A DNA stretch of 64,000 nucleotides, taken from NCBI GenBank assembly GCA_964106915.2, contig OZ066917.1. The stretch is one strand, 5' to 3'. A program made the translations under genes and the position numbers. Numbering within the stretch: position 1 is the stretch's first letter; each line of letters begins with the position of its first letter. This document shows positions 6,951-30,317 of the stretch, in pieces. The notes below the pieces were generated by a model. The model was not told where the DNA came from and searched no databases. It was given only the letters and a program-made list of their open reading frames with translations. This DNA is from Podarcis gaigeae. Taxonomy: Eukaryota.

Positions 6951-7008
6951 GTGCCTGGCGTGCTCTGGTCCATGGGGGTCATGAAGAGTCGGACACAACT
7001 GAACAACA
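6951..7008 (+). mobile_element. BovB (RTE) LINE extreme 3' end
   Basis: gtgcctggcgtgctctggtccatgggggtcatgaagagtcggacacaactgaacaacaa. Degenerate 13-bp TSD atttactgagtta / atttcccgagtta. Confidence 0.75.
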
Positions 7009-7639
7009 ATTTCCCGAGTTAACATCCAGTTAGGATGAGAAACAGAGCAACAAATGTTAGAAAGTTACAATATTAAAAAAATTGGAAGGTTCAGAATCAC
7101 ACTAGTCAACAGTGTTCACACAAGTAAAGAACAACAAACATGGGAAATGTACTCTTCCATATTGAATGGTATGCCTGTACCTAATCATACCGAATCATTT
7201 CTACATGTTGCTGATGCACCTTGCTGTGGAATGTGTGTTTTCCCAAGCAACACGATTGGGGCCAATTCCATGGGCCTTTCACTTCTCAATCACCACCATG
7301 CCTGATGGGACTGTAATAATTGTCTGGGTCTTTCTCATCTGGCCACTAGCCCTTTCTCATGTGATTATAGTATTCATACACAAGCTGTAGTTGTACTGGA
7401 TAACAATGCAGCGGAGCAACATCTATGCAATTGTGCACATGTGAAGGAGGCCTGGGGAGAAACGAAAACATGGTTTGCTAAAAGGAAAGGAGCATATGGG
7501 TCAGTGTCATCGGGTGGGTGTGTTTAAACAGGAATCCAAATTCATTTGGAAAAGCTTCTGGCCCAGCTGAGATAGACAGACTAATCTTATGCATATCTAT
7601 TAAGAATTACCGAAGTCACATAACATTTACATCTGTAGT

Positions 7640-7835
7640 TTCCTCCAAGGAGTTCAAGGTGGCACACATAGTTCTCCTTCTCATTTTATCATCCCAACAA
7701 CCCTGTGAAGTAGGTTACGCTGAGAGTGAATAACTGGCCCAAGATCACCCAACGGGCTTCATGGCAGAGTGGAGATTGGAACCCTGGTCTCTCAGGTCCT
7801 AGTCCAGGACTGTAACCACCATAGCACACTGACTC
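7640..7835 (-). mobile_element. MIR/CORE-like SINE
   Basis: Same family as 100-296 (acaaccctgtgaagtagg...ggcccaagatcaccc...ttcatggcagagtgg...gaaccctgg). Confidence 0.7.
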
Positions 7836-10419
7836 TCACATTGCTGCCACACACTAGTAGAGGTTGGGAAGGTATGCATTTCATACCTTCCCTTTTAAGG
7901 TCTTTGGATCTCCCCATGGAGCTCCATTTTATAATCTGAAAATGATTGCTGTGTTTAAAATAATGTGTAGTTTTGGACCAACAGAGAAGGAAACAGTTTC
8001 ACATAATTCTAGAGCAATGAAATTGTAATATACAGAAATCTGCTGCAGGTCTACAGAAAGTATTTCCCCCCCTTGCTTCACGCATAGTGGTGTGAGAGCC
8101 CCTTTTCTGTGATGCAATCCCAGGGCCTGTTTAACTCCATGTGGATGATGTAACCCCATGGTCAGGGCCCTCCCCTCCAGCCTAGGTACCAGTCAGGTGG
8201 GAAAGACTCATATGATGTGATAGGCTCTCCCCATGTGCATAATCAGACACATGGAACTGCTTCATGGGGAAGCAGGCCCTATGCCACTGCTGCTGTGTGT
8301 GAAGATCTTGAAGTGGACAGGTGACCTTTGGAACTCATTGCTGATAGGTTTGATAATTCCCAAATGACTAAAATGCATGCAAATCAGAAATGCAGTGCCT
8401 AATACTGTGAAGATGGAGAGGGAGTTCTTGCACTTTGTGATACTTGAGTGGAAAATGGGATTAGTATTGGTCCTGTTTTCTACACTGTGCTTTAACTCAG
8501 ATCAACAGAGATTACTGAGCTATGCCCACCATTTTGTTAACCATTAGTATTGAGACATCTAGATTAGGGTTGCCATATTTCAAAAAGTGAAAATCCAGTC
8601 AGAAAGGTGGTCGAGCTTTTCTTGCCCATGTCTGGCAACCCAAAGATGCACATTCTGGTTCTACTTTTCTCTTGCTGGATTTCCACTGAGCATGTTTCTC
8701 CCTGCATGCCAATCTCTCTTTCTATGACTCTGAGCTAATACTTCGCATGGGGATTCTGCGTTTTAATTTAGACAACATTTGCATAACTGTTTTGAATTCC
8801 TAGATGCAAGGTCACACATGTTTTCACCGAGAGTCTTTTGTGTAGGGGGAAAAAAGCCCACAATTTCGCTTCTCGGTAATTTGTGAAAACATTAATTACT
8901 GAATATAGCTTATTACCAGACAAGTGCTGTCCTGGCTGGATCTCATGGAGAAGAGATGGGTAAAAGGTGGAGCTTTGAGTGGGAAGGAAGTTTTAAAAAG
9001 AAAATTCAATGAGACAGCAGGGAGGGAGGAAGAGTTACTGCATTTGTAGGATTGGTGCCTGAGTCTCTGGGCCACAGATGGTTCATGGTTTTTGCTGAAC
9101 AAAGGGAATCTGATTTTGATAGATTATGATAATTCTCTTTATTGGGTTGTATCCAACTAAGTTCTACTTAGTATTCTTGGGTACAAACTATTGCTGTTGT
9201 TTATTTATTTTGTGTTGTTGCAGCAAAATAATCCTGTGGTGTGTATATGGTGCTATACACGTTTATTTTATTTCTTTGAAAATCATTGACTGATGCCATC
9301 GATCTTGTTCTTATGGACAGAGACTTTTAGAATAACCCAGGCCAGAGTAATAGCAGAGTCTTTGTGGTTTGAAGTGTTCAGTGATGATGCATGTGCATGG
9401 GAAGTATGAGTCAGTTCTACTATGGATCTACAATTCCATGCGCTTCTGCCCAAACCAAATGAAAACCAAAATGTGATATCCTCATGTCACTATGTGAGAG
9501 TGGATGATGTCCTGTCTTGCCCAGTGATGTCCTGCCCTGTGAGGAACCTGATGCTGCAAGTCTTTGTCCTACGCAGCATCACTTACTTTTTCATGAAGAT
9601 AGGTGCTGCAGTTGCGTTACTGGTACTCTTCCCTGCCCTAGAGCTTTCCACTTACAATTTACAAAGCAATTTCCACATTTTTAGACTCTGCTTCATAGAC
9701 AGCATCTCTACCCTTTCTTGCCATTACGTAGACAACCCATCCTTCCTGTTCATGGTAATGCAGCATCCCTGTGGGAAAACACACCCATTTGCTTCTGTGG
9801 AAAAATAGCATTGGGAAAATATTGATTTAACTGTCTTTGGTGCAATAAAGGTTTTGTTCTTCTTGAATAAAGTTAATAGCACTGTCTCCTGCAGCTCTTC
9901 ATTTCCTTTTGCACACCCATCTGTTCTGCTTCCGATTGCTTTTCCTCTCCTGTGTGATTCATGTTTCCAGGTTGCTAATCCCTGCTGTGGACCTTGTGCA
10001 TACTTAGCCCTTTTATCTGGCCTGTCTTTTTTCTTCTGCCTTTGTTTCTCTTGTGGCCAGTTTCTTTGAACAACCCATCTTCGTTCTGCTTGATACTAAA
10101 ACGATGGAGGTGATTACACCTGCAAACCTTCCACGGAGCCTGTGGGTTTTGGTTTTCTGTGTTGCAACCTACATGAATTTACGCCCTCCAACTGGAGGAA
10201 ATACGTCACTTCCTCTGTGGGCAGCACCATAACTATCAGAGACTGCGCCTCCCAAGCAAGTCTGAAATGGTCATCTCTAGGGTGGCCAGGCTGGCCAAGG
10301 ATGAGGGCTTGCTATGCTGCGACAGGCCAGTGTTCTAGGCCAGCATTCTCTCTGCTGACAGTGGCAGATATAAGCACAGCATGATGGTTGACAAGCACAG
10401 CATGATGGCAATACCCACC

Positions 10420-10880
10420 CACTGTCATTAATCCTCAGCATCTGATAGCCAGAGAAGTGATGTCTCTGAACATGGAAGTTGCAATTTGGATATTATGGCT
10501 TGCTATAGCCATCAATTGACCTATTCTCCGTGCGCTTATTTTATCTGCTGAAGGCAATAATGTCCTGTGAAAATGAGTTCCACAGGTTAATTATATGTTG
10601 TGTGAGAGAGTAATTTCTTCTGTTTGTCTTACATCTGCTGTGGATGGCCTTGGACCTTTTTTATTTTGAGATTGTTGCCCTTTATTTACTCTCTTCACAC
10701 CAATCATGTTTCTCTAAAACCTACCCCTTGTCCTCTCTCGGTTTTCATTTTTCTCCTAAGCTAAGAAGCCCTGTCTGTTTCATTTTCCATTCTTTTTTAT
10801 TACTATTTAAAAAAGACCCCTTCCAGTGTTTCTACATCTTTTATTATGAAAAAGAAGGTGAACATTGTCCAGAACTGCAT
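10420..10880 (-). mobile_element. Old CR1-type LINE 3' fragment
   Basis: tagccatcaattgacctattctcc is the reverse complement of the CR1 3' motif seen at 11700-11730. Boundaries are approximate. Confidence 0.45.
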
Positions 10881-11424
10881 GTGTTGCTCTAAATGAAGAT
10901 CCTTTTCATAATAATTTCTACCATTATTATTATTATTATTATTAGTAGTAGTAATAGTAAATTTGTATACTGCCCTATACCAGTGGTATACCTGTGCCTG
11001 CACTAATGCTGCACAAAAGTGACCCTCTGATGAGATTGCTGGCTGATCATGCTCAGTGCATACTTTGAAGCCACTCTTTGGAATATTTGGATGGATACTC
11101 TGTTGGAATTGGTTCCTGCTCATCTTAGGACTTACTGTGTTATCCTAGCATTTTGTTTTGAGCAGCTAGTAATGTGCTCTTACATTCTTACATGTTGAAG
11201 TCTTACATGTTAAAGGAGGACCATACCATATGCTTTTTCTAGATATCATATTATAATTTGTAGCACCCCCCCCCAAATGTATGAGAACTGTCCTGCTGAA
11301 TAAGAACAAAGGGCCATCTAGCCCTGTATTTCTGTTCCCCAACAACAGTAGCTGGGCAGATTCTCACAGGAAGCTAAGAAATATGGCACTGGTGATAGTG
11401 GCACTGGCTTCTTCTTCTCATCAT

Positions 11425-11520
11425 ACAACTCCCATGATCCCTAGCTAACAGGACCAGTGGTCAGGGATGATGGGAATTGTAGTCCCAAAACATCTGGCGG
11501 GCCGAGTTTGCCTATGCCTG
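11425..11520 (-). mobile_element. hAT MITE, partial copy of the 21181 family
   Basis: Near-identical to the 21181-21317 element, with one TIR (gagtttgcctatgcctg) retained. Confidence 0.8.
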
Positions 11521-11669
11521 CCCTGAATTACCTTTTTACTCTAGCCTTCACTACAGTGGTTAGGGCTGATGGGAGTTGTAGTCCAAAATGTCTGGAGAGC
11601 ACTTGGTTGACAAAGGCTGCTTTGTTAATTCACACAGTGCATAGCTGAACTATGGTATTCATTTCCACA

Positions 11670-11930
11670 AGAGACAAAGATGGCCACCAGCTTGGATTAG
11701 ACAAATTAGTGGAGGATAAGGCTATCAATGGCTTCTAACCCTGATGGATACATTCTGCCTCAGCATGCTTCTCAATACCTGTTGCTGGAAACTGCAAGAG
11801 GGGTGCATGCTGTTGTGTTCGGATCTTGCTTCTGGGCTTCCTAAGGGCATCTAGTTGGCCACTGTGAGAACAGACTGATGGACTAGATGGGCCACTAGCC
11901 TGATCCAGCAGCAGACTCTTCTTTTTCTTA
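11670..11930 (+). mobile_element. CR1-type LINE 3' end
   Basis: gatggccacc...ggattagacaaattagtggaggataaggctatcaatggc...ggactagatgggccactagcctgatccagc. Confidence 0.6.
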
Positions 11931-12239
11931 CAGTGTGAGCATTCTGAAGACCATTGCTAATTTGTTTTCGTACCCTGGCCTTCATCTTCTAGTCTTTTTA
12001 TTCTGCACCACCTCATTTGGTTTGGAGATCTCACCCCATGCATTACTATCATGCCAGATGGTTACGTAATTGTGAAACCTACCAAGCAGAACTTAGTTGA
12101 CCACCAGTATGGCCTTTGAACTCTACACAAGAGTTTCATCCGTCTATTCTTGTGGCTGTCATTGCATTATAATCCACATAAAGTGCATTGCAATATTCCA
12201 TTTGTAAGGTTATCAGTGCATGGCTCCCTTTAACTATGG

Positions 12240-12400
12240 TATCCGTGTCTAGGAATGGCTGCAGCTAATGCTGAAATTGGTAAAAAGGACTCCTAACCAC
12301 TAAGGCCATTTGAGTCTCCAGTGACAATGATGGATCCAGGAGTACTCCCAAGCTATGTGCCTGTTTCTTCAGAGGGAGTGCAACCCTGTCCACAACAGGT
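12240..12400 (-). mobile_element. L2-type LINE RT fragment
   Basis: Minus-strand translation LPLKKQAHSLGVLLDPSLSLETQM resembles the L2/CR1-superfamily ORF2 C-terminal region. A related fragment lies at 49070-49340. Confidence 0.6.
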
Positions 12401-12409
12401 AACTGACAT

Positions 12410-12473
12410 ACACATTGCAGGAGGTTGGATGAGATAACCCACAGGGTCCCTTCCAACTCTACAATTCTGTGAT
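12410..12473 (+). mobile_element. CR1 3' terminal fragment
   Basis: ggttggatgagataacccacagggtcccttccaactctacaattctgtgat, the CR1 terminal hairpin plus ATTCTRTG repeat. Confidence 0.7.
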
Positions 12474-13536
12474 CTCAAACAGTAAACGATTCACCCACAG
12501 GGCCTCTAACTTAGCAGGATTTAGTTTCATGACCCTGTCACATTCCCCCTCCCCCCAAGTGAATCTTTCCCCCTAGTGTGAAAAATATCCTAGTTGATCT
12601 GAACCACTATCAAAAGCTGCACTATGATTGTAATGGGTATCACCTTTCCGGCACTGATGCTTGTGGGAGGACAAATGTATTGCCCTAAGAGGATTGCACC
12701 ACATACTTTCCCTGAATGTTGCTATATATCTGTAGCATCCTAAGAATGTAAGAGCTGTCTTGCTGGATCAGAATAAAGGGCCATCTGGTCAGGCATTCTG
12801 CTCCCAACTTTGACTTGGCACACAAATTCGACTTAGTAGAGACAGCCTTTATCATAACAGTTCCAGAGTTTCCATTTTGTAATGGAAATGTTAATGTCAC
12901 TATAGGTCCTGTTTGGCTCACCTAATATCCCCCTCCACTCCCATTTTGTATTGTCTGAATTTGCAAATTGGCAATGCAAATGGAACCTGAGACCATTACA
13001 CCATGCTATTTGTTCTAATCAACTGATAATCTAGGGGCACTAATACACTTTATAGCGTCCATAAAGGAAGATTAGCTTCCCTTCATTTGAAGCAATAACC
13101 AATAGAGAAATTTGCTATTGTCTGTTGATGGCCCTGTTATTTATTAATATTTATTTGCTTATATTTATAGCTCCTTCCTAACCAATTTGGAAGTCAGACC
13201 ACGTAACAGACCAAATAATCTCTTGTCAATGTACACCCATCCACTGACGTCCCTTGCCTTCTGAGCTGTCTGGCTGTTCTTAACCTTTCTGCAGTCCTCT
13301 CCAACTACCCTTAGACTTCACTCCCTTAAACCTAATCAGCACTCTTCCAGCTGCTGCTTGTGTCTTGGGGAAAAGGCATGGGAAAGATGAGGGTGTAGGA
13401 ATTCCCTTGGTTGACGTATGATCAAGCCAATTGAGCTCCTAGTAGGTAGAAAGCTCCAGCTGACAACCTGCGCATGGTTGCACTCAAGCCCATCACCTAC
13501 CCTTTTGGCCCCATCACTTGATTTAGGTCTCCCCTA

Positions 13537-13760
13537 CTGCAAAAAAGCTAATGCTATTCTAGGCCACATCAACAACAGTATAGCGTCCTGGTGAAAGGAA
13601 GAATAGTACCACTCTATACTGCCTTGGTCAGACCACACCTGGGGTACTGTGTCCAGTTCTGGGTGCCACAATTTAAGAAGGATATTGACAATCTGGAATG
13701 TGAATGAGATGATCAAGGGCCTGAAATCCAAGCCTTATGAGGAATGGTTGAGGGAGTTGG
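13537..13760 (+). mobile_element. CR1 LINE ORF2 fragment
   Basis: Encodes ANAILGHIN...[31 protein letters not shown] with disruptions, a hallmark CR1 RT C-terminal segment. Confidence 0.85.
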
Positions 13761-14409
13761 AAATCAATTCAGTAGGCCTGTTGGCACAAGAAAAGTATTC
13801 AGTAGGTCCCTAAGTCTTACCAATGAGGAAGTCTGCCAAATTTTATGGTGTCTGGGATTGGGGGGAGATTTGGAGTTTGAAGTACCCTGATCCCAGTTTC
13901 CACAGCCCCAAACTTCCCCACACAAACATAGTGAAGCGGAAGCAGAATAAACAAGTTCCTGCATTGTACAACTTCTCAGGGCCGGAGAAGCAGTCACTGC
14001 AGGAGCTGAACAGTTTCCACTTACTACCCCTCTTCTCTGGCTAGGAAGGTACAGCAGAACACTTGCGTCTCTCCCTGAAAGGGGCTTCACAGAACATCCT
14101 TCAAGGACAGGTGCTATAGTAGTTCTTTTCCTGAGCCAGGCACTGGAGCAGGAGCAGAGGAGTTGAAATAGAAGCAGTTCTCCCTGGAGCTTCTCCCTGG
14201 AGCTGAGCTTGGGAAGGCCCACTGTAGCCCAGGGAGATTGACCACAGCCATCTGCTTGAGATGGTTGCTTGCTAGTTCGAGCAGAATAACTGAACTTGCA
14301 TTGTCATGATCTCTCTCTCTCCTTTTGTAGGTTCCCTCTCCCCCACTTTACCAATCTCACGTTGCTGGGTATTGCCACTGGGTGCTGCCATTGGCTGCTA
14401 GCTTTGGCA

Positions 14410-14778
14410 CTGACCTGTGACAGGGCCTTCTTGGTGGTGGTTCTCCACTTGTGGAACGCTACCCTGGTGAGCTGTGTTGATCTCCCTTAGGAGGAGTTCT
14501 CAAACATTCCTGTTAAGCCAGGCATTTGTTGGTTAAAAGATGCTATTCTTGGCAACGTTCAAATTAAATTATTAACTATGCTTTTAAATATTCTAACAGT
14601 TTAGATATTCTTAAAAGTTTTCGGATGTTCCTATTGTTTTTAAATGTTTTAAGTATGTTTTTTTTTACTTTTAATTGTGTTGTTTTGTTGCTTTGGTGCT
14701 TGCCATGGGCTCTCGTGGCAGTAAGGGCGAGATAGAAATTTAATACATACATACATACATACATACATACATACATAC
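14410..14778 (+). mobile_element. L2-like LINE 3' end with (ATAC)n tail
   Basis: gacagggccttcttggtggtgg...ttgtggaacgct, then an AT-rich tail and an (ATAC)9 microsatellite at 14743-14778. Confidence 0.55.
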
Positions 14779-16007
14779 AAAATTAATTTTTTGGTGGGAA
14801 TTGGCATTTATATAGCTGCATAAACATGGTAATTTACAGAAATGAGTGCAAATCAAGCAAATTTTTATATATTGACCCCTTCTAAATTTGTGAGAGAATG
14901 GTGGAAGGCAGAATGAGATTTGAATGGATTTCAATGCATCTGCTCCAGAATGATGCCTTTTAATAGATTCAGATCACTATACAAACTAGTAAGTGACAAC
15001 AAATTGAGCAATTTGATCTCCGCTTTCTTAAATACCATGGCAACACAGTTGAGTACCAGATTTCAAGGGCCAGGTCAGTTCCCAGAATACAACTGCTTCA
15101 ACAGAAATAACACAAGCGACAAGATAGAACACCACTGCTTTTTGCCTACAGCTCACATTTGAGGTTGTTGTAATGCATCACAATGGAACTACAAACTGTT
15201 GTCAAGAGTGATCTGCTGGGAAGAGCAAAGAAGTCACAAGGAGCTGACCTTTGCTGGCACATAGACAGCTGGATAACCTAAAAAACCCAATCACTGCTCA
15301 GAAACATATATTGCCAAATTTATGACAAGAAATTGTAACAGACCGAAATGTTGACTATGGCCTCTGATACTTTGCTTTGTCTCAGTGGTACTGTCCATTG
15401 TACCTACATGCCAATGTTAGCAATTCACATTGGATAACTACCCTATCTTTTAAATGTAGTGACTGGGCACAGATCATATACAAAGAGCAAGAACACCAAG
15501 AAAGGAGTGGTGTCCACAGAACTGGACACACTATTGCTTATGTGAGTTACAGTTATTTGGAACATCAAATTGTGTGGATCCATGGAACATATGACAACTG
15601 AACAGGAGTTCAAATAGAAACTCCTCAGTATTCTAGAATCAGAATAAAAAGTGAAGAATTGTGTCTGTCAGAGATTATTCTGTCTCTACTTTTTACAATT
15701 TTCAAAAGAAACATTCCCCACTGAATGGATGCTAATTTAATTATTAAGGAGGCTGCAGTCACAGTCACTATATTCAGATCTTCATTCTAGCAGAATAGCA
15801 GCTAATGTGTCTTCCAGATTCTGTGAACTACAACTCCCATTGGCCCAAGTCAGCATGATCAATGGTTAGGAGTGATGTGAGATGGAGTCCAAAATAGCTA
15901 GAGGACATCACAATGTCCTTACTCCTAGAATGTGTATGGTGGGCGGGGGCGGGTTAAGTGCATGCTAGCCTCCGTTCCTGACTTACATATGTTTACTATC
16001 ACTACAA

Positions 16008-16375
16008 GGGACGCAGGTGGCGCTGTGGGTTAAAGCCTCAGCACCTAGGACTTGCCGATCGAAAGGTCGGCGGTTCGAATCCCTGCGGCGGGGTGCGCTC
16101 CCGCTGCTCGGTCCCAGCGCCTGCCAACCTAGCAGTTCGAAAGCACCTCCGGGTGCAAGTAGATAAATAGGGACCGCTTACCAGTGGGAAGGTAAACGGC
16201 GTTTCCGTGTGCGGCTCTGGCTCGCCAGATGCAGCTTTGTCACGCTGGCCACGTGACCCGGAAGTGTCTCCGGACAGCGCTGGCCCCTGGCCTCTTGAGT
16301 GAGATGGGCGCACAACCCCAGAGTCTGTCAAGACTGGCCCGTACAGGCAGGGGTACCTTTACCTTTACCTTTACC
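16008..16375 (+). mobile_element. Full-length Sauria SINE (tRNA-derived head, (ACCTTT)n tail)
   Basis: A/B boxes (tggcgctgtgggtt; ggttcgaatcc) and an (accttt)n tail. Perfect 15-bp TSD ttactatcactacaa at 15993-16007 and 16376-16390. CpG-rich, so young. Confidence 0.93.
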
Positions 16376-17678
16376 TTACTATCACTACAAATAGGCATGC
16401 ATGCACCGTTATATGTGCAGAGGGCTTTTCTGCATGACCAAGAACCCTGTGGTTTCAGGTTCCCCCAACACAAAGACAGAGGCTTATTCTTCTTTGTTGT
16501 AATCTTCTTCATTCGCATGGTTTGGGGTGGAGCCATGATGTGACTCCTCCCATGCATTCTTTGGAATCTATTGGAATAACCTTCTAGATCAGGAACAATG
16601 ATCAGCAACGTTCAGTAGTTTAGCAACAACCAAAGGGCCAAAGGTTCCCCATACCCAACCCCAGACTCTAGGAAAAGGGCTGAGTTATGCTAGTATAGAC
16701 AGATTAGGAGAGAAACACAGCTTTCGCCTCTGCCAAGAGAAACCTTGAATAGAGATAAGTTTTGCCTTCTCTGCTGTTTTTTGAAATTATGTTCCTGATG
16801 CCCCTTTGGGCAGACTGTCATCTAAATGCAGGATTGGTCCAGTACTGGTCCTGTAGGCTTTAAGACATTACCTTCCATTATGACTACAATTTAACATATC
16901 TGCTTCTAAATGTCTGCCACTTTCTTTCTGCTCTGGCCTTATGCTCATCACTTCCTGTTCCCTTTTTTGTGTGTGTGGTTTGCTCTGCCGCACACATGTT
17001 TATTCCGAACAAGTTAGCAACATGCCTAATTATCCTTGCTGTAAGCATCCTGTGTATCATCAGCTCCTTCTGCTGGGGTGATTGTTCATTCATTTCTGTA
17101 GAGCAAATACGGCTTTGATGATCAAAATAGGATCTGTGAAGGCAAATTAAGGGGAGGGAGCATAATCAGACTGACACATAAATCCCAGTGAGAAATATGG
17201 TGACACGAAGCTATATGATAAAGTGGGCCTGGGACAGTTTTCAGTAGGTCACTGGGATACTGGAGGCAATACATGGCCATTGATAGCCTTCTCCATGAAT
17301 ACGTCAAACACCCTTTTCAAACCATGTTGGTGGCCATCTCTGCATCCTATGGCTTGAATTCCATGGTTTTATCTATGTGTGAAGAAATGTTTCCTTTTGT
17401 CTGTCCTGAATAATTGCCTTTGTATTTTCCTCCTAATATACTCTAACGTGTGCCCTCCCTCCCAATGCTAGATATGGGTGGTATTATTGAACTAAACAGT
17501 TGGGTGAGCAGAATGACTTCTGCTTGCACAGCAGGACTGCCCTCTTCTCTTCTCCCTGCATACGCCCCGTACCTTTCCTAAATCTGCTCTGGAGGGTTGA
17601 AAGAACCCAGAGGACAGATTTAGGGCATGAGCTGGGAGAGGAGGAAAGTTATTCCTCTTGTGCAAGGATATAGCTCTA

Positions 17679-17854
17679 CATAGCTGTCAACCTTCCTTTT
17701 TTGCGGGAAATTCCCTTATTCCAGCGCCGTTTCCCGCTGCTATCCTGGATTGTTAGATATCCTGTAGACTATCCCCAGGACAGGTGAGGCTGCTGATCCC
17801 TTATTTTCGAGGCTACTGATCCTTTATTTTCAAATCTGAAAGTTGACAGCTATG
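17679..17854. mobile_element. hAT-type MITE
   Basis: TIR catagctgtcaac / gttgacagctatg, perfect 8-bp TSD tagctcta, and an internal ~23-bp tandem duplication. Confidence 0.9.
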
Positions 17855-20800
17855 TAGCTCTACCCTGAATATGACCTCTGGAATCAATGTGATGGTGCTG
17901 CCACCAGTGCCCCTTTCCCGATTAGCCCATTTTCTTTTTTGCTTTTGCCTCAATCTTGGTCACTTTATGCTGGGGGTCAAACTAAATATGCCACTGTGAG
18001 AACGTAATTAGCACACAGGTGTTAATTACATAAATAGCAGCTGCAGGGGCCTCAAAGCAGCTTCAGGACCATACAGGAGGGTAGAGAACTTGTTCTTTTC
18101 CTGCCACATTCTGAACTAAAACCACAAAAATCAGCTTCAGAGAAGCATTTGAAGGGGAAGCCTCCCTAAGGAACATTGCTGGTTGAAATGCAAATGGCAG
18201 CTTTGGAAAGCCAATTTTGTCAAGTTTGTGACAGGGAAACAAAAATGTGTGTGTTAACTGCATCCATACAATTAAAGTTGCACCTAGTTTGTCTTTCCCC
18301 CCTGACAAATTCCATGTATAATTTTGTTGCTCATTCACCCAGTCTGAAGAGATCTTTTTCTCTTCAGTCCACTTAGGTATATACACCATTCTAAATACTT
18401 GATGTCATCTGCAAACTACGCTACCTATCTATGCTGTTTTCTTCAGCTTAAAGAAACATATTTTCAATCTATAAGAGGTTTACAGAAGATACCGAGAAAA
18501 GGAGAATTACCCAGATAATCCATCCCAGCTGCTTTTAGCACTGTATAGTTCCAGACTAACATTTGTGAAGTAAACATGGGCCTACAACAACAGCAGAAAA
18601 AAAGTCACTTGGAGGAGGGTGACTATCAAGGGAAGAGTTAAGCACATACATTCCCTTTGTGCTACCTCGGCTTCAAAGCACTTTGCAGTGGTGGGAGGAC
18701 TTCGTGTGGAAGGTTTGCCCAAGAAAGTTACAGCTGCACAAGAGAGACTTGTACTTGTTCTAATATCCTTGCATACCATCGCAAAGTGAAGGGCTGCACT
18801 TTTCTGGAATCTGCTGGTTCAGGGTTCTCTCCCCCCCCCCCTTTTCTTGGAGGAGAGTGTCGAAGAAAAGAATGCAGGTGAACCCTGTGTGAATGCTGAG
18901 AGATAATGCAAAAGAACCCCCTCATTTCACACACCCTGTCCCTCTCTGTACCTCCCCAGTTTCCAGGCACCCACTGAGGGATCTCTTGCAAAAAAAAAAG
19001 AACAACTCTTGAACCATTTTCCTGGGGGAAAGCCCTTCCCTCCAGACCCCTGTGCTTCTTAGCTTTATCCATGCCAGCATTATTGCACTTGCTCACAGCT
19101 TCCGCTTACCTGTAATGTGGCCCTGGGGCAGCTGGTAATGGAAAATGTACAGTGCTTTGCTCCCCCCTGGCAGTTTCTCTGTCAGAATTGCCCTCGGGCT
19201 TTTCTTTGTGCTGGAACCTGAGCAGGAGCTAGCTATGTCCTAATTGACATTTCCAACTACATTCTTACTCATGCGCTACTCTCTCTCCCTTCCCATGGAA
19301 TTCAGAAGGCTTGATTCAGTCAAACATGCTCAGAATGTAAACACGGACTCATTTCAATACACTTGAAGCCAGCTAAGAACCCTCAAGAGAAGTATTTGGG
19401 GGTCTCTCTCTCTGTACTTTGGGGGGCATATATTGGGCCCTGTATATTTTTCAACATTTTAGCAGTCAGGCAGTTATGCTTAAAGACCTAAACCAAGTTT
19501 ATTCAATTCCAGCGCTAAGTACCTTGAGATCCTGCCCATGGACAACTTGGCAAGTCGCTAGTCTGATAGAAGACAAATGAAACTGTTTAAGAATATATCC
19601 CCACAAAGGTCAAAAACAAATAACTTTTAAGAAATAAATAAATTAATTATTTGCTTTTCTATTCTATCTTGTAGACAACACATGCTATGACTGCAACATA
19701 GGTCAAAAACAAATTTCTGATAGGCTGGACAAGAAACCAAAGAACTTTTCTGAGCCCGCAAAAAAGCAATACTGTAATCAGTATTTTATTCTTCATCTTT
19801 GCTCTGACTTCTCAGTTAACGTGCAAATATTTTGAGGCCGTGTCTGAGTTGATAGCTACTGTGCACATAAAGAATGTTCATATCTGTAGTCACCAATGCT
19901 GTGGTTTTAAAAGGATCTTGGGATAGGCTTAGGACATGTAAGGAGCACAATAGACGCTCCGTGTTCTCTGCAGGCTGCCTCATCCCCTTGCATAGCACGT
20001 CTGGCCATAGACACGCCTCCTGTGTGATTAGTGGCAGGTTAGTCCTCCAGTCTATTGTCTGGGATGGAGGGAGGAAGGAAGCTTTGCTGAAAGCAGCCAT
20101 GTATTAACACATCAGCATCCAAATCAATATCTTCCCTGACAGGACTAATTCCACAGAGACATGCTGCCGCCAGCCATGCTGTAAGGAAAAGCCGTGCCGG
20201 TCCGGGGGAAATGCAGATGTGGAGGTGCCTGGGACCATGGCAGTCCTGGGACTAACACAGCTGGGGTGTAGGAATCGCCGCAAAGCTGCATGGTTTGCTA
20301 GGGAAAATGCCTTTGTATCAAGCTTGGACAGGTCTGTCTTCAATTTCCTGCTTCAGTATCGCTTGTCTGTGTGCATCCCTCCTGCATCACCCCTTTGGTG
20401 CTTTCTCTTTGTCATTGTCTGTACCGTTTTGCCTTTTGCTCTTGCTCATCTTCCTTCCTTCCTTTCTTCTCCTCAAGGTCTTGTAGCACATATTCTTTCC
20501 TTCAACCATTTCCCTCCCATCCTTCTCATTGACTTCTCAATTCCAGTCAATCCAGGGTGGCTTTTGCAGGCAGGGGGGAGGAAAGGCGTGGCACCTGTTG
20601 CTTATGTTTCTGCTGGAAGGGTGGAACTTCCTTTCAGCTTGTGGTTGCTGCCACGTGTCAGGAATGAAGACCCAACTGCACAGCCCAAACCCATCCACCA
20701 AGCTACCTGCTTCCCCAGCCGTTGGGAATTCACCCCTTTCCTCTAATTGCTTGGGATGTTTGCTTGATTTAACGAACCCGTAAACACCACCTCAGAATGT

Positions 20801-21180
20801 TAATTGCTCCTATTTCCAGTGACACAAATTAAAAACACTACCACCTCAAACAGAGCACAAGCAAAACAAGAGCAGGGAGGATACTTTGTTGAACTTGGCA
20901 CTCTTCTGTTCAGTGGATGGAGTGAACATTGCCATCAGCAGCAGTAGCTCATGCTCCACCCGTATAAAGCAAAGTTCAGTGTTCAAGCATCCCAAGAAGA
21001 ACTGGTACCCAAGCATCATTTTTCTGGGCACATCTGGTATAAACTTGTAACATGGGCCCCTTTCCTCTTCCTCTCAGAAGGCTTCGCCTGCCTGATTTAT
21101 TAAATAGGGTAGATTGTTTGATGTCATTGAGCTTTTTGATTAGCTCCCTTTGTTGGAACTGCTTAACCAAGGCTGTAAAC

Positions 21181-21317
21181 CAGGCATAGGCAAACTCGGC
21201 CCTCCAGATGTTTTTGGGACTACAATTCCCATCATCCCTGACCACTGGTCCTGTTAGCTAGGGATGATGGGAGTTGTAGTCCCAAAACATCTGGAGGGCT
21301 GAGTTTGCCTATGCCTG
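21181..21317. mobile_element. hAT-type palindromic MITE (~137 bp)
   Basis: TIR caggcataggcaaactc / gagtttgcctatgcctg and 8-bp TSD ctgtaaac. The body is largely self-complementary. Confidence 0.92.
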
Positions 21318-24300
21318 CTGTAAACTCTTGGAGGCAGAAATCAAAACTCCATCTCCTACAGATGCAACTGGTTCTTGTACCTTTGGGGGATAAGATCAGG
21401 AAAACTGCTATTTTCATCACTTGTGGATGCTCTGACCATAGTAACAACATCTGCCCCGGCATAGAAGAATCCTGCTAAGAGAGCTGCAGGGCGGAGGAGG
21501 CAGAAGCCACAGTCTTCTATCCTGGTGCCTTCACACTATTTAGCTAGGTTAAGCGCAACTGTCCTTGGTGCTAAATTGCTTCCACACCTCAGAAAGCGTG
21601 AAAGGTTTTTTCCTGCCTCCTGTGCCCATGTTTCGCTATTTTAGTAGATACAGTTGGCAAATCTTTTCCCTCTGCGCTTCATTCTCAGCTATTAGATATC
21701 AGTCATCTTTGATTTTTATAACATGATCCCTTTCGTTCTGTCTGACAAAACAGCTATACGGGGGATTCTTTGGATAAGGCTGAAAATTTTTGTAGTTGCT
21801 TTAATTAGTATTTGTATCCCTGAGCCACTGCATGTGTGGGTGTATTTGATTATGTGTGTGTACATACTTTTTAAATTAATAAAATAATGAAAATGAGAAA
21901 AAGGTGGCTAGTTGCCTCCACTCCCCAAGTTTACAACGTAGGAATCCTAGATTGTCTCTGTTTCTCGAGGGGGATAGACCCACCAACTAGAAAAGGGGAT
22001 TATCCCTCTGTGAATCCTGCTACTCCATTAGCAGTCAGCCTGAATAATGGGGAAAGGTACATTTTGCATGTGACAATTCCGTTCCCCCGCCCCTAGTCAT
22101 TCATTTCATAGGGAGCTGCCTTATATTGGATCACAACGCCTTGTTTGTCTTGCCTGGCATTTTGTAGTCCCTGTCCTGAAACTGCCATGGCTGGAGATGC
22201 CAGTGGTTGAACATTGGACCCTCTGCATACAAGGCATATTCTCAACCACTGGTCCTGCTTCATTGCTCATCTGAACCTAGGAATCTGCACAGAATTAGAA
22301 AGAGACTCACAAAAAGGGCCGAAATTCCTTACGAGCTGCCCTTGTTCCATGGCTGGATGAGCCTCAGGTCCTCTGAGAATTGGTTTTGGATATTGCATCA
22401 GAAGCACAAGGTTTGCTTGCTTACAGAAGCCAAGCTTCTCTTGCAATGCCCAAACCGATTCTTCTCCATTTATAAATGTCTTCTCCATTTATTTCATTGG
22501 AACTCCAACCCGCCCCCCTGGCCAGGGGACTTTGCTCCCTAAGATTTTTCTCCCCAAATCTTGTTCTTCAGTCTCTCTTACTTCTTTACAGGATTATGAA
22601 ACCTATCATTTATGATCAGTGCTCTTCCAAGGTGTTTGACACCTCCACATTCTTCATTTACCCCATTTCAAGTCACGTGCCTGTCCCCCCATCACTTTAT
22701 GCTTCATAAAACCAAACAATTGGATCCATGCACTTGAATGTAGGTCCTCCAGATACAAAGAGTGGTGGATTGTGGCCACACAGAATAAACAAATCACTTC
22801 ACTTTTTTCACCTGTGAGGCTGGTAAAAGAGCATCTATCTCTGCATTTCTGCTGTATCTTCCTCCTAGAGGGAGGAGATGAAAGTGCTCTTCTCTTCCAT
22901 GGGAGGAATGATGCCAACCCAGGCTCCTTCATCGTTGGTGTGCTACCTGCTATGGGATCAATGGGGGAAGATGGCTCTGGTAGTCCCTCTGGTAGTCCTT
23001 GTTGCTGAAACACATTAATTCTTCCCCCTATCAGCCCCGTATTAACGTGAATTGCCCATCAGAAGCAGAGATGCTCCAGTGTCCTGTACCTTCTTATTGT
23101 AATCCAGGAAGACAGGGGAAGAACAGATGGAAAATGATTGCTGCATTTCAGTATACGGAACTGTTGGAGAAACACACACAACAGTAGAGGGTGAGGTAGC
23201 GAGAATGATGCCAAAATAATGACTGCATCCTATCCTGAACTGGGAATCTTAGATAGTGAGTCATGGATCTACGTATTTCATGAAAAAGAGGTAGAAATAT
23301 TATGAAGATTGTAGGTTTGATAACGTGGATCGGAGAATGAGGTTAACAAGCCTGAATACAGTCCTTTGGGCAACTAGTAGAAGTCATTTTGACAAGGGAT
23401 TCCTTGGAGGAGGTTTGGGGGCATGAAAGAAGAACAGAGTGTTCCCTTCTTCCAATATATGACAGAAAGGACTCTGGAGAATACATGTAATGAGGACTTT
23501 CTTTCTTTTTTTGTCCAAAGAAGTTTGATCAATAGTGAATTTTCTCAGGGCTGCCGACATTCTATTTATGAAATCACAGGTCTTGCCATCTTAGTGTTTT
23601 TTTCTGTACCTCAAGCTCCTAAAATTTAAAATAGTCTTCAAGTTTTAGAAACTGAAAGCTTATTTTAAAATGCTTCTAAATGAATTAATATTCTTTAACG
23701 TCAGCTTGTTATTTTGGAAGCGTGACTTACTTTTAAAGCCATCCTATGCTGTACTAACCGTGCAACATATGCAGACTGCCTACACAATACACTTTCCCCC
23801 ACATTTCAGGTGAATTGCTGCTCTATGGATGCCTTCAGACTGCCAGTATTCATTTAAATACTGGCAAATTGAGGTTTGTGAAGTTAAAGTGGATTAAAGT
23901 GTTCTGACTCTCAGACACAACAAACCCACTTTCAAACACAACACAAAATAGACTTTTTGCTGTAAGGAAAGTTATGGGAAAATGTGGGATGACATTAGAT
24001 TGGTGGAAAGCCATATAACCTTGACACAAACAAATCAGGGTGTGAATGCTCAATGAACAATGGACATCATACAACCTCTGCAGAAACTTTGTGCAAATGA
24101 ATCAGAATGAATAAGCAAGTTTCCAGAAGTGACCTGTGTTCATGACAATGCTGAACCAGCTTTTCTTAAATCACTAGTATGTAAGATACTGAGATCAGCA
24201 ATGTCAGTTCTGTAGAGCTCCAATGGACCAGGAGGGTCACTGGGGAGACTTCTTGGAAAAAATATTTGAGTCTCAGAGAAGCCAACACTCATGGGTCACT

Positions 24301-25379
24301 AATTACCTTTTCTTAGTCAGCCATCCCATTGCCCTAATAATCTGCAGGCACTCACCAGCTTAATGTCTGTCTCATCAACCCATAGCAGCGTTTTCTTCCT
24401 GTTAATGCTAGCAGGGCATAATGAGGCAGGCAGGAAAGTCAGCACCAAGCAGGAAAGTGACACACCAGCAGCATGGATCCAGGCTGCACAGGACCCCCCT
24501 GGCCACTTCGCAGCTGGGTATCTGACCTAACACCTTCCTCCATTGCTCCTGGTGAAGGCAAGGCCTCCTTGGCTTTCCTCAGTCACTTGCACTGCAGTGG
24601 TAGCGGAGTCCTACCTGCTGCAGCTCACCCAACACCGCTGTCCACATCTGACTCATTGGTTCTTGTTTGTGGATGGGGATGTGCATTTGCATATCTCATT
24701 GAAAGTGATCAGTGAAGACAGATGGCGCCAACAAGCATTCTGCTGTGCTTTTGAATGTGCATCAGACTTGTGCCGTAAAGTGATACATGTGCAGAAGCAT
24801 GCTTACTTGTGAGGGTTTGCTTAGCTGCATTGGTAAGCCTGCTTCTAAGTGGGAACCACACTAAATTGCCTTTGTGGGAACCTGTCCCTGTGTTTAGCTC
24901 CTTAGCCTGGAACAGTTTGTGTCATGCTGGACAAACCCCTTGACCATGTTGCATCTGCTTTCCCATGCTGCAGGCAGTGGTGACTGGTGTCCATTGGACC
25001 TGGTGGGGCATAAGGCAAGGGACCAATGAGAGGGACAACCATAGCCAATGACAGGCAGAGCCAATTAATTTTAGTTTTGTTCCCATCCTCTTTTCTGCAG
25101 AGTTCTACAAGGGCAACACTGAGACTGAGAAGGATGAAACTTATAGGCAGCACCATCCGGTGGTGGAGACTGAAGTCAGATTGTGATGGGTGGGGCAGTG
25201 TTCCATTTGCACTAAAGGAGAGATCTCCACTGCCTATAGGGCTGTTGGCTTTTGAACGTCTCTTGCCTTCAGAGCTCTCAGCTTTCAGGCTGCGTATTGC
25301 TTCCTGACCACCACCTGGATTGAAGAGCTGCCATATTTTGTGTGGACAACCCCACTCCCCTGCTTGTCCTCCTAAAGAA

Positions 25380-25606
25380 GAAACAAAACAATATAAAAAT
25401 CCTTCCAGTAGCACCTTAGAGACCAACTAAGTTTGTTATTGGTATGAGCTTTCATGTGCATGCACACTTCTTCAGATTTCGTGTGCAGCTATACACACAA
25501 AAGCTCGTACCAATAACAAACTAAGTTGGTCTCTAAGGTGCTACTGGAAGGAATTTTTTTATTTGGTTTCAACTACGGCAGACCAACATGGCTACCAACC
25601 TGTAAC
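25380..25606. mobile_element. Penelope-like element terminal-repeat fragment with inverted arms
   Basis: Inverted arms ccttccagtagcaccttagagaccaactaag.../...ctaagttggtctctaaggtgctactggaagg. Same family as 26019-26284, in the opposite orientation. Confidence 0.8.
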
Positions 25607-26107
25607 TCCTACAAAAGGAGATTGAAAAGCTATTTCGAGTGTGGTTTTCTCCCCCAGTGCATTCAAACAGAGCTTCAGATAGCTGTGCTGTGCTTTTCAT
25701 CCTGCAGGATTTCCCTGGGGCTGTGAAAGATCTCCAGGCGACGAGCTTGCAAATGGGTTCTTAATGCATTCCAAGATGCCCATTTGAAAGAACAAATGTG
25801 TATGTACAGAACATTACCTTTGGGAGCCCCACTGGAAATTTCAGGATGGATGTTGAAAATAGAGAGGCCATCAAATTCATCCAGCCTAGCATTGTTGACT
25901 CTTACTGGCAGCTGCTCCCCTGGGTCCTGATCAGAAGAAGGACTTTCCCATTACTTTAAGAACATCAAAACAACAAGAGTGCTGTAGCCCCCTAAAGACT
26001 ACTATCATGCTATAAGTTACAGATAGGTAGCCGTGTTGGTCTGCCATAGTCAAAACAAAAAAAATTCCTTCCAGTAGCACCTTAAAGACCAACTAAGTCA
26101 GTTCTTG

Positions 26108-26145
26108 GTATGAGCTTTCGTGTGCATGCACACTTCTTCAGATAC
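26108..26145 (-). ncRNA. Minimal type I hammerhead ribozyme motif (Penelope-associated), antisense to GAP43
   Basis: The reverse complement reads GTAT-CTGAAGA-A-GTGTGCATGCACAC-GAA-AGCT-C-ATAC. Confidence 0.75.
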
Positions 26146-26191
26146 ACTGAAACAGAAGTTTCCAGACCCTTCTGGAAACTTCTGTTTCAGT

Positions 26192-26229
26192 GTATCTGAA
26201 GAAGTGTGCATGCACACGAAAGCTCATAC
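26192..26229 (+). ncRNA. Minimal type I hammerhead ribozyme motif (Penelope-associated), sense to GAP43 pre-mRNA
   Basis: GTAT (stem I), CUGAAGA core, stem II GTGTGCATGCACAC, GAA, palindromic AGCU in place of stem III, C17, then ATAC (stem I). Predicted cleavage after 26225. Confidence 0.75.
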
Positions 26230-26386
26230 CAAGCACTGACTTAGTTGGTCTTTAAGGTGCTACTGGAAGGAGTTTTTTTTGTTTTATCATGCTATAAGTT
26301 TTCATAGACTGGAGCCCACTTCACAAGATGTATGAAGATGCATACTCAGTTGCAAATATATATTTAAATCATATTATATTAGTGAT

Positions 26387-26410
26387 GTGTGTGTGTGTGT
26401 GTGTGTGTGT
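26387..26410. repeat. (GT)n microsatellite
   Basis: Read directly from the sequence. Confidence 0.9.
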
Positions 26411-27510
26411 GCGCGTAAGCAGTGAAGTTGGAGGAAAATGAAATGCAAGAAACAGTGCCAATTACAATTCAATTGGAGCTATAATGTGTACAAAACAAGT
26501 GTAGTAATAGGTGATAAAACAATCAAGATGGTAATGCTGAGTGAATTAACACTTGTAGCAGGATATGAAACCATTGTCTCTACTCAGATCCAAATGAACA
26601 GAACTGAAATTCTTGATTAAATATTATCCAGGAGTTTCACATTGGAACCCATCCCTTGAAATTCCTTTATTCACATTTGGCCTCTTCAAGATCAATAGCA
26701 GAGCATCCTTGTAGAATGAAATGTTTTCCCACAGGTTTCTGAACACTACCATTTCCGATGTCATATTTGCGCCCGTATGATTCTTTTCTACGTGGACTAG
26801 GCTGCTTGCCCTGTGTAGAATGTGGAAGGGCATTTCTGACAGATGATAGTAATGTATATGATGAAGATGAACAAGTAAATTGACCCTTGATGATGTGGCT
26901 GACATTTTTGGTTCCTGCAATTGTGTTGCCTGATTAGGTGTGTTGGGAGGACAGAGTTGGCATCTGGGTCAGCTGCAAGCTGCGGTTCCACAGGTTGTGT
27001 GGGCTATTGTTGCTGGTGAGTAGCTATTTCAGATGAGGGATATTTATGTAACCAAAGACTGGCCCACCAACCATGGGCCAGGAGAACAAAGCATGCTTGA
27101 TTTCACTGCTTAAAGTTCTCCCCATGTGGCTCTATACTGTGAATTACACTACGCATCTGGTAGATTCTAGCTCACGAAAGCTTGTTTGTTATTTGCCACA
27201 ATACTGGTTGTTGTTGTTTTTTGTACTGCAACACAGAAACTCTAGATACCCTCTGGAAATTGCCTTATATCTACCCCAGCATTGTGTATTCTAATGGGCA
27301 GAAGCTCTTTGGGGTCTTAGGCAGAGACTTTTCCACTGTCTACTACATGATCCTTTTCAACAGAGATGCTGAGGATTGACCCTGAGTCTTGAACCTGAGA
27401 CTCGCTGCATGGCAAAGCATGTGCTGTGCCACCCAGCTATGCCCCACCCTGCCCAGCCCATTTAAATTTTGCCTCTGCTTTCCCAAAAACTCTTTGCTAA
27501 TTACCTGACC

Positions 27511-27652
27511 ATAGTATCATGGAATTGTAGAGTTGGAAGTAACCACGGGTGTCATCTAGGCCAATTCCCTGCAATTCAGGAATCTTTTGACCAACATGGG
27601 GCTCAAACCCGGACCCTGAGATTAAGAGTCTGATGCTTTACCAACTGAGCTA
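27511..27652 (-). mobile_element. tRNA-Lys-derived SINE with CR1 3' tail
   Basis: Minus strand TAGCTCAGTTGGTAAAGCATCAGACTCTTAATCTCAGGGTCCGGGTTTGAGCCCCATGTTGG is tRNA-Lys(CTT)-like. It is joined to a CR1 tail ...ttccaactctacaattccatgat. Confidence 0.75.
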
Positions 27653-28464
27653 TAGAGACCAGCCTGTCATTAGTCTGCTGTACTCAAGGCTGGTGAATTA
27701 CTAAGAGAAAACAAATATGTACAGTATATAAAAAGAGACATAAAAGATTGCATTTATTCATGTGTAGAAGTTAAAACAGAGCTATCCGTCATTTAATACC
27801 TCTTTAGGAAACATTTAAAGCAACTTAGTGCTTATGTTTGCACTGGATAGAGGCTGCCAGTGTGCACTGTAGGTCAGGTCATTTAAAACCACACTTAAAA
27901 GAAACCATCTGATAAATGTACCCCTTGTTTTGGAAACAAAAGGATAGTATTTCATGATAAATATGTTGTTTTATTTATTTATCTAAAGTATTTATAGGGC
28001 ACTCTTCAGCAATGCTCTCAGAGTGGCAGCTTGCAATAAAATAATCAAACCACAATGCAGTACAATGAGTCATAAACATCTCAATAAAACAAGACACAGA
28101 GGAGCAATAAATTAAGATAAAACAGTAACAGTAAATCTCATCAAGCACTTAAAAAACCTGGGCAAATAAAAAGGTTTTTACCTGGCACAGAAAAGAAAAC
28201 AAGGCTAATGCCAGGTACCTCTGTTGGTAGAGGGGATTCCAGAGAATTGGTGCCACAGCAGAGGAGGCGCCTTGTCTTGCTGTCACCACCTCATCTCAGA
28301 AGATATGTTGGGAGGGGTTGTTGATTCATGAATGAGCACATGCTTTGTATGCAGAAAGTCTGGGAGGTGGATTTAGGGCAGCACAACTGGTTTCGCCACA
28401 CTGGGCACCAAGCCTAGGAGGGGCATTGTAGGAAGCTGCCACTATGATGTAGTGAATTGAGCAT

Positions 28465-28569
28465 GTTGTTGTTGTTTAGTCGTTTAGTCGTGTCCGACTC
28501 TTTGTGACCCCATGGACCAGAGAACGCCAGGCACCTCTGTCCTCCACTGCCTCCCGCAGTTTGGTCAAA
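28465..28569 (-). mobile_element. BovB LINE 3' fragment
   Basis: (caa)n tail, BovB 3' sequence and a perfect 11-bp TSD gaattgagcat. Confidence 0.88.
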
Positions 28570-29704
28570 GAATTGAGCATAACAGAAGGCAATATGCAGG
28601 AGTTGGGGTGCCAAATTTTGGCCTCACACAGGGTGCCACTGAAATTTGAAAAACCAGTTTGCCCCTGTCAAAGCTGAGATGAACTCCTTTCTAGAACCTT
28701 GGAGAGTTGTTGTCATTCAGGAGTGAGCTAGGCAGGACAATGGTCTGACTTGGTATATGACAGCTTCTTGTGTTCCTAAGGTGGCAAGACTTTTTACACC
28801 CATAAATGTCCATATGAGAATAGATGCCCCTTCAAAGAACCTGATGCCGAGCCACTTAGGATTTTGTAGGTCAGAACCAATACTTTGAATTGTACCTGGA
28901 AATGGATCGCTGAGATGTGTTCCATATATTTGGCCATGCTGCTGCATTTTGCTCTTACTCTTGAACAGCACATTTCAAAATTCTAAATGAGATGTTTAGT
29001 TGATGCATATACAGATCCATTCTATCATCTATCTACCTACCTACCTACCTATTTGGTATGACCTGCAAGCCCTGTGACAAGTATATGGCTTTTTCCATGC
29101 ATGCTTTCTTCAGAGGCATTGTCAAAATCCTGAAGCTCTGGGGATGGGTCCTTTGCAGTGGTTGCCACAGGTCTGTGCTGACCATGGAAGGAAAGTGGCA
29201 GTTGAAGCCTGCAGCTCCTAAAAGCTATGGAGAGAGTGCTTTCAAAGTCTCCTTGAATGTTGCAGAGCATGGGCTGAACATATCGGTGTGGTCAGCACAG
29301 AACATCATTGTAGAGTGACAGTTGCTATGGGAACGGTGTACCAGTGTTGAGTGACAAGCAGCTCACCCATCGTCCCTAATAAGTATAAAGTGTCTCTCTT
29401 AAGAGTTCAAATTATAATAAATATGGGATTGGCTTAGCATGTTGAATATGGAACGGAAGTCACATGCTGGATTTTCATTCTTTAATGCTGCATATTAGTA
29501 GTAACATGTTTTTCTACTATTAACTTTGCTTATTACAGCAAGTATCAGGAACGAGGAAAATGAAAACCTCCTGTAATTGCTTTATGTTTGCTATGTGTGT
29601 TCTGCAATATGCTTACCCAAACACCCTAACTAACTTTCATAGAATGTATTTGCTCGAGAGATTTCTAATCAAACCTCCCCTCTCTTTTCTTCTCCCCACA
29701 AAAG

Positions 29705-30317
29705 GTTGAAAAAAATGATGACATTGACCAAAAGATTGAACAAGATGGCATCAAACCAGAAGATAAAGCTCATAAGGCAGCCACCAAAATTCAGGCTAGC
29801 TTCCGTGGACACATAACAAGGAAAAAGCTCAAGGGGGAGAAGAAGGGAGATTCCCAAACTACTGATGTTGAAGCTGGTGAGAAGAAGGAGGAAGTCCTCG
29901 CCAATGGCTTGGCGGATGGCAAAGCTGCTATTACAGAAGCTGCTCCAACTGAGAATGCCCTGCCTGCCGATGGCAGCAAAGGAGGAAGCACTCCAGCAGA
30001 TGAGAAGCAGGGGGAGGGCACAGCTGACACTGGTTCAGAACAACCTGCCACAAAGGCCACTACTCCCGCTGCCCCGTCGGAGGAAAAGTCCGCTGCTGTT
30101 GCCGCTGAAACGGAAAGTGCCACTAAAGCTTCTACCGATAATTCACCATCCTTGAAGGCCGACGAAGCGCAAGTCAAGGAGGAACCTAAACAAGCCGAAG
30201 TGCCTGCCACTGTCACTACTGCCGTTACCCCCACTGCTGCAGAGGATGCTATTGCCAAGGCAACAGTGCAACCCCAAACAGACACAGCGGAGAGTAGCCA
30301 AACCGAAGAGAAGACAG
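29705..30317 (+). CDS. GAP43: GAP43 coding exon 2 (IQ calmodulin-binding motif, PKC serine, Ala/Glu/Lys-rich region)
   Basis: Polypyrimidine tract and AG at 29703-29704. Translates [43 protein letters not shown]...SSQTEEKT. Phase-1 donor G|GTACGC at 30318. The PKC serine is residue 42. Confidence 0.98.

Follow-up and report, generated by a model that had tools for sequence, protein, structure and literature searches.

A young head-to-head insertion of a Penelope-like element end in intron 1 of GAP43 carries a minimal hammerhead motif on each strand

The palindrome in intron 1 of GAP43 is very probably a young, lineage-restricted head-to-head insertion of the end of a Penelope-like element (PLE), and its two hammerhead motifs are probably inert cargo without a role in GAP43. 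The parent family, the target-site duplication (TSD), the empty sites of relatives, the abundance of similar inserts and the architecture of one tailed and one untailed arm are described below, together with the readings of the motifs and of the way in which the two arms arose.

Anatomy, parent element and age of the insert

All coordinates refer to the window, the 64-kb stretch of DNA that was analysed. GAP43 was identified on the + strand by Pfam matches to Neuromodulin_N, IQ and Neuromodulin. The coding part of exon 1 covers 1240-1269 and is followed by GT, and exon 2 starts at 29705; these boundaries and domains confirm the location in intron 1 given by an earlier note, and re-examination of the sequence confirmed its palindrome. 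Element positions are counted from an A taken as +1, which follows the first T of the TATA-like motif at a distance of 30 nt. The features are as follows.

1270..29704, + strand: GAP43 intron 1, the host context of the insert
25386..25607, no strand: older, separate head-to-head insertion of the same family, with arms 84-91% identical to the arm of the GAP43 insert
26003..26018, no strand: left TSD copy, 16 nt, of which the final 4 nt are also the end of the element's tail
26015..26051, - strand: PLE tail, made up of codons 1-11 of the parent ORF (MADQHGYLSVT), with which the tailed arm ends on its outer side; RT start site 'B'
26052..26173, - strand: tailed arm with the pLTR's 3' part, which spans element position -24 up to the T-run; the TATA box (at -30) is missing
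26108..26145, - strand: minimal hammerhead motif, antisense in GAP43 pre-mRNA
26164..26173, no strand: head-to-head junction, where a 3-nt microhomology falls within a 3-bp/4-nt mini-hairpin that is native to the pLTR (compare the intact pLTR of locus L056)
26171..26285, + strand: untailed arm, comprising pLTR positions -17 to +97; its end in the T-run that precedes the ATG is RT start site 'A'
26192..26229, + strand: minimal hammerhead motif, sense in GAP43 pre-mRNA, predicted cut after C26225
26285..26300, no strand: right TSD copy, a 16-nt direct repeat

The paired parts of the arms (26052-26166 and 26171-26285) are 115 nt each and enclose a 4-nt loop. They differ at two mismatches, 26065/26272, which is a U-G wobble in RNA, and 26103/26234; judged against other copies, both changes sit in the untailed arm. 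The tailed arm exceeds the untailed arm by 7 nt, and the TATA box is found in neither. The tail, 33-37 nt long, had been overlooked in the earlier note. In the predicted fold the hairpin has an energy of -217.7 kcal/mol (z = -33), and none of 200 shuffled sequences was equally stable. A miRNA reading of the hairpin was rejected: the miRNA models fit a generic hairpin and all scored below their own gathering scores. On the GAP43 sense strand, a pyrimidine tract followed by CAG (26178-26190) just 5' of the sense hammerhead has the look of a splice acceptor, but it is enclosed in the hairpin. Some 85 bp downstream of the insert there is a GT dinucleotide microsatellite (26386-26411).

The insert derives from the end of a young PLE, of Neptune type by its linker motif, as a 5'-truncated copy in head-to-head arrangement. 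A full-length parent was found at L056, where a truncated copy, a pLTR, an open ORF of 910 amino acids and a further pLTR follow each other as a partial tandem. The ORF carries RVT_1 (residues 438-586) and, C-terminally, a GIY-YIG domain (808-856) according to Pfam, and the L056 pLTR matches the insert arm at 99%. The Penelope-like origin proposed earlier is thus borne out by the ORF domains, the pLTR match, the tail and the TSD. All features expected of an EN+ PLE were found, namely an ORF with RT and GIY-YIG, partial-tandem pLTRs, a 30-40-bp tail at one end and an inverted 5'-truncated copy with a TSD. At residue 770 the ORF has a CX4CxxC linker, which falls within the CX2-5CxxC pattern that precedes GIY-YIG in Neptune and, according to the available text, is shared with Nematis (PMC8557442). 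The ORF lies at L056:706-3435 on the - strand (contig C17), and one cysteine of its CCHH motif is replaced by R, where other copies have C. Among named proteins, the closest are ORFs of turtles (68-70%) and fragments from lacertids (80-81%); pieces of the family's ORF also appear to be fused into annotated turtle and lacertid gene models. A non-autonomous, MITE-like family was rejected because the centres and arm lengths vary from copy to copy, each with its own TSD.

The exact 34-nt hammerhead motif occurs in 11,151 genomic copies, and the reversed control in none. Head-to-head motif pairs number 1,583 with a gap of 0-30 and 311 with a gap of 31-60, up to about 1,894 in total (~1,900), with a few pairs counted in both gap classes. 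At the resulting density of ~1.25 per Mb, 0.036 pairs are expected in an intron of this size, and many genes are therefore expected to carry one. For a fragment of the endonuclease end, 40 of 40 scored copies (1,387 candidates) showed a 100% match; the family is very young as well as abundant.

Four DNA runs were compared at the insertion site; in one of them (X7, organism E) the flanks were uncovered. In two close relatives (organisms B and D) the site is empty: in single contigs, 26002 is directly followed by 26285, and the TSD sequence occurs once at the empty site (runs X4 and X6). The insert is hence young and lineage-restricted. Conservation at the orthologous site, as would mark an intronic ribozyme exapted by the host, was not found in B and D. 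The presence/absence typing proposed in the earlier note thus revealed a difference between species. Presence within the species is suggested by a second same-species sample (run X3), whose contig enters the insert by 22-25 letters, below the 31-letter bridging rule. In the relatives' comparison, the contig depth was raised at 25000-25150, which represents another repeat fragment.

The older insertion at 25386-25607 had also been overlooked. It lies 666 bp upstream, with its tail on the right and a degenerate TSD; its + arm lacks the hammerhead core, and its - arm has kept the core with one change. Its left arm could also pair with 26194-26285 (88%). This older insertion appears to be common to all four runs, because contigs from each of them cross the unique flank into it.

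Hammerhead motifs and the GAP43 transcript

The motif at 26192-26229 has a 4-bp stem I, a palindromic stem II of 14 nt and a palindromic AGCU, and lacks helix III. Helices I and II form in the predicted monomer fold. The sequence contains the core nucleotides, helix I, helix II and the palindromic 15.2-16.2 of a minimal type-I hammerhead, and one such motif was confirmed on each strand, as the earlier note had reported. Its description of the hammerhead as 'complete' has to be withdrawn, since helix III is represented by the palindromic AGCU only and no Rfam hammerhead model matched; a canonical hammerhead has both helix III and such a match. Over the window, Rfam gave no hits at the gathering score, and relaxing the search to E up to 10 gave 22 matches, mostly to miRNA models, with no hammerhead among them. 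The + strand of the window carries one sense motif only. According to the available text of a study of metazoan minimal hammerheads, monomers do not cleave, dimers show low activity, and dual motifs on opposite strands have already been described (PMC4209133).

In GAP43 pre-mRNA, the antisense arm would be transcribed first and the 115-bp hairpin would bury the lone sense motif. The motif would be inactive regardless, without helix III, a partner or PLE protein. Masking of the sense motif, as proposed in the earlier note, is supported as a prediction by the folding energy and z-score given above. The order of transcription that it had stated is also correct for this locus but is no specialty of GAP43, as it is true of any head-to-head insert in either direction, and masking therefore follows from the geometry. 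The further step, a GAP43-specific ribozyme/anti-ribozyme lock, is not supported: the geometry recurs at up to ~1,894 loci, the insert is absent in B and D, and the sense motif stands alone. With one sense motif and no cleavage of monomers in published assays, the 'lock' is a geometric by-product. Likewise, about 1,900 similar insertions and the absence in two close relatives make it likely that the two motifs are inert cargo and not a gene switch.

Two ways in which the hairpin could still matter to the host were weighed. That it holds an active ribozyme off in GAP43 pre-mRNA until ADAR or helicases release it to cut the transcript is highly improbable, even with an intact set of core nucleotides and a very stable duplex. 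Helix III and a second sense motif in the window are lacking, and the modelled hairpin (-205.9 kcal/mol) dwarfs a double-hammerhead dimer (-11.1 kcal/mol); two monomers are predicted to favour a 14-bp intermolecular stem-II duplex instead (-30.6 kcal/mol). Less than 1% of the genomic copies begin at the cleavage site, and the common geometry and the empty sites of relatives speak against this reading as well. Long intronic inverted repeats are typical ADAR substrates, as known from inverted Alus. The near-perfect 115-bp intronic duplex could, irrespective of any ribozyme, serve as an ADAR or Dicer substrate, and incidental editing is plausible. That this measurably changes GAP43 splicing or expression is nevertheless improbable: some 3.4 kb separate the insert from the nearest known splice site, it is young and lineage-restricted, near-identical hairpins number ~1,900, and editing would be a by-product common to the family.

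Template RNA and origin of the two arms

The 5' ends of the copies point to the RNA that was copied. Of 100 motif-bearing arms, 59 begin at +2 to +8. Genome-wide, 2,727 breaks were counted before +4, 2,133 before +2 and 501 before +1, so that about 4,900 copies begin at two positions ~32 nt behind the TATA box, often with an extra G. Among the first 100 matches listed for +4, 68 starts were preceded by G, 17 by C and 15 by A (counted by eye), and we infer that the G fits copying of the cap. Before +2 starts, T was found in 79 of 100 among the matches listed, possibly through untemplated A addition or slippage on a GUGU 5' end. At the cleavage site 154 breaks were found, compared with 121 and 120 at control positions and with the 2,727 at +4; 18 of 30 inspected cleavage-site breaks were true truncations (two borderline). 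Hammerhead-cleaved RNA was accordingly rejected as the main template, though a small excess is possible. The start peaks at +4 and +2, together with the near-control number of cleavage-site breaks, make uncleaved RNA starting at stem I the likely main template. The GAP43 arms reach -17 and -24 and were therefore likely copied from read-through RNA. A pyrimidine tract and CAG end at +2, yet an origin of the 5' hot spot from a splice junction was rejected because no shared upstream exon precedes the copies.

For a census of head-to-head inserts, the first 100 exact motifs listed (contig C1, 0.15-6.67 Mb) were grouped to 78 loci and the copies were mapped on the natural copy L056; the census thus covers the first 6.7 Mb of one contig. 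The outer ends cluster either in the T-run that precedes the ATG (A) or at the end of the tail (B), and single-arm inserts end at A or B independently. There were 51 adjacent head-to-head pairs, of which 12 with an unclassifiable end were dropped. Among the remaining 39, 36 were AB, three AA and none BB, compared with 19.4 AB pairs expected (P = 1.5e-8). An AB pair was held by 34 of the 78 loci, and 33 of the 36 AB pairs had a TSD of 11-17 nt. By at least 10 nt, the untailed arm reached further 5' in 18 of these pairs and the tailed arm in six, with similar reach in 12. At BLAST boundaries, the junctions of the 36 AB pairs showed extra letters (18), overlap (14) or a blunt join (four). Many junctions among those listed have short repeats of adjacent arm sequence, and some have extra AC repeats. 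We take the repeated arm pieces to resemble templated insertions of polymerase theta end-joining.

Arms were also compared at +50, a subfamily allele, in 63 AB pairs from all loci, 57 of which had +50 in both arms. The arms agreed in 53 of the 57 pairs and were discordant in four. The background (31 of 4,091 sites) predicts 0.43 discordant pairs (P = 0.001), and a random combination of alleles about 27. Discordance at +84 (15 of 60 pairs) was set aside as homopolymer-edge noise.

We consider it rather likely that the PLE nicks its target and that two cDNAs are joined end to end. In this process the PLE protein would nick both target strands 12-16 nt apart. From the 3' end at each nick, element RNA would be copied into cDNA, with one start at the tail end and the other at the T-run preceding the ATG. 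The two cDNAs would halt early and then be joined end to end at a microhomology. As the hammerhead sits in the pLTR end, each strand would receive one motif. The one-tail rule, the unequal and discordant arms and the two-strand priming seen in vitro, as given in the available text of PMC11167929, together favour two primed cDNAs over fold-back.

An otherwise identical, inert PLE insertion could have gained its mirror arm by fold-back self-priming, either by snap-back of the cDNA or by self-priming on an antisense template; self-priming is the mechanism proposed for inverted PLE copies in the available text of PMC3846280. We regard this origin as doubtful. It would account for the GAP43 junction, which is a natural mini-hairpin and, with a 3-bp stem, a 4-nt loop and the longer tailed arm, fits snap-back as well as it fits two primers. 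Several of the best-matching copies (L002-L008) also turn at a natural 6-bp inverted repeat, and the +50 allele is common to both arms in most pairs, an agreement that fits copying, a shared source RNA or a succession of subfamilies in time. On the other hand, 18 of 36 untailed arms hold sequence absent from the tailed arm and the tailed arm holds the tail; since each arm has sequence that the other lacks, neither can simply have been copied from its partner, though unequal arms could also result from deletions that later struck the centre of a palindrome. The four discordant pairs, the single-arm inserts that end at A or B by themselves and the loop-less perfect palindromes at five of 50 loci among the matches listed also argue against fold-back.

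With two primed cDNAs as the preferred origin, the ~1,900 mini-palindromes may or may not, in equal measure, be a fossil record of the PLE mechanism. In that case two cDNAs would be primed by a dimeric RT-endonuclease at the nicks of both target strands, with an obligatory start at the tail end for one and a start at the pre-ATG T-run for the other. Most would be 'strong-stop'-like run-offs where the capped RNA, TATA-driven and beginning at the first base of stem I, has its 5' end, and host end-joining with templated insertions would then fuse them. If true, this would explain the inverted-plus-tail structure without antisense self-priming. Literature listings on PLE priming, squamate palindromes and GAP43 ribozymes contained no paper that puts forward the two-primer model or describes the GAP43 insert.

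The GAP43 locus itself is of small import; its insert is a generic intronic hairpin whose presence or absence can serve as a marker among close species. Of greater interest is the family, which is very young, has 11,000 copies, and provides counts that separate models of how tandem and inverted PLE structures originate. These are a single tail in each inverted insert, arms that are unequal and in some cases differ in their alleles, a sharp 5' run-off point where an additional G is seen, and next to no starts at the ribozyme cut. The open 910-aa ORF with its Neptune-type linker is material for in vitro work as carried out for Anolis Poseidon.

Comparison with known systems

In L1 twin priming, a cDNA is primed by each of two target 3' ends and the two products are fused head to head; they derive from non-overlapping parts of one RNA. 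Here, in contrast, the arms are both copies of one and the same pLTR segment, begun at two fixed start sites.

The following comparisons concern the available portions of the papers cited. Drosophila Penelope has an internal TATA-less promoter (PMC2377424) and differs in this from the TATA-driven start read here; rotifer pLTRs carry TATA and Inr-like motifs (PMC3846280). With the minimal hammerheads of metazoan PLEs (PMC4209133) the insert shares the core boxes, the extra nucleotide between 9 and 10.1, G10.1-C11.1, a 4-bp helix I, the palindromic 15.2-16.2 and the absence of helix III. It differs from them in that stem II is itself a 14-nt palindrome.

The PLE protein of Anolis carolinensis Poseidon (PAc) cuts and extends both strands, and its RT starts at two sites that bound the tail; the hammerhead cleaves only with PLE protein and is dispensable for insertion, and the portion available reports no matching RNA-seq ends (PMC11167929). 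Two RT start sites bounding the tail were likewise found here, and as for PAc there is no sign of hammerhead-cleaved RNA as the main template. Unlike PAc, the family has the CX2-5CxxC linker, which is absent from Penelope/Poseidon, and its ORF begins downstream of the hammerhead, whereas that of PAc begins in stem II.

The closest likeness in architecture is to the insertion units of EN+ PLEs (PMC3846280, PMC8557442), which also consist of a pLTR end with a head-to-head inverted, 5'-truncated copy, a 30-40-bp tail, made up of codons from the ORF start, on one of the inverted pLTRs, a TSD of variable length and a TATA-like pLTR motif. The inverted truncated copy, the tail on one arm and the pLTR hammerhead are thus already in print, and the GAP43 locus is a further example. 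The origin of tandem and inverted PLE structures is termed undefined in PMC8557442. What sets the present family apart from these units is that both arms measure only ~115-160 nt, that minimal palindromes number ~1,900, and that the one-tail rule is near-strict (36 of 39 pairs).
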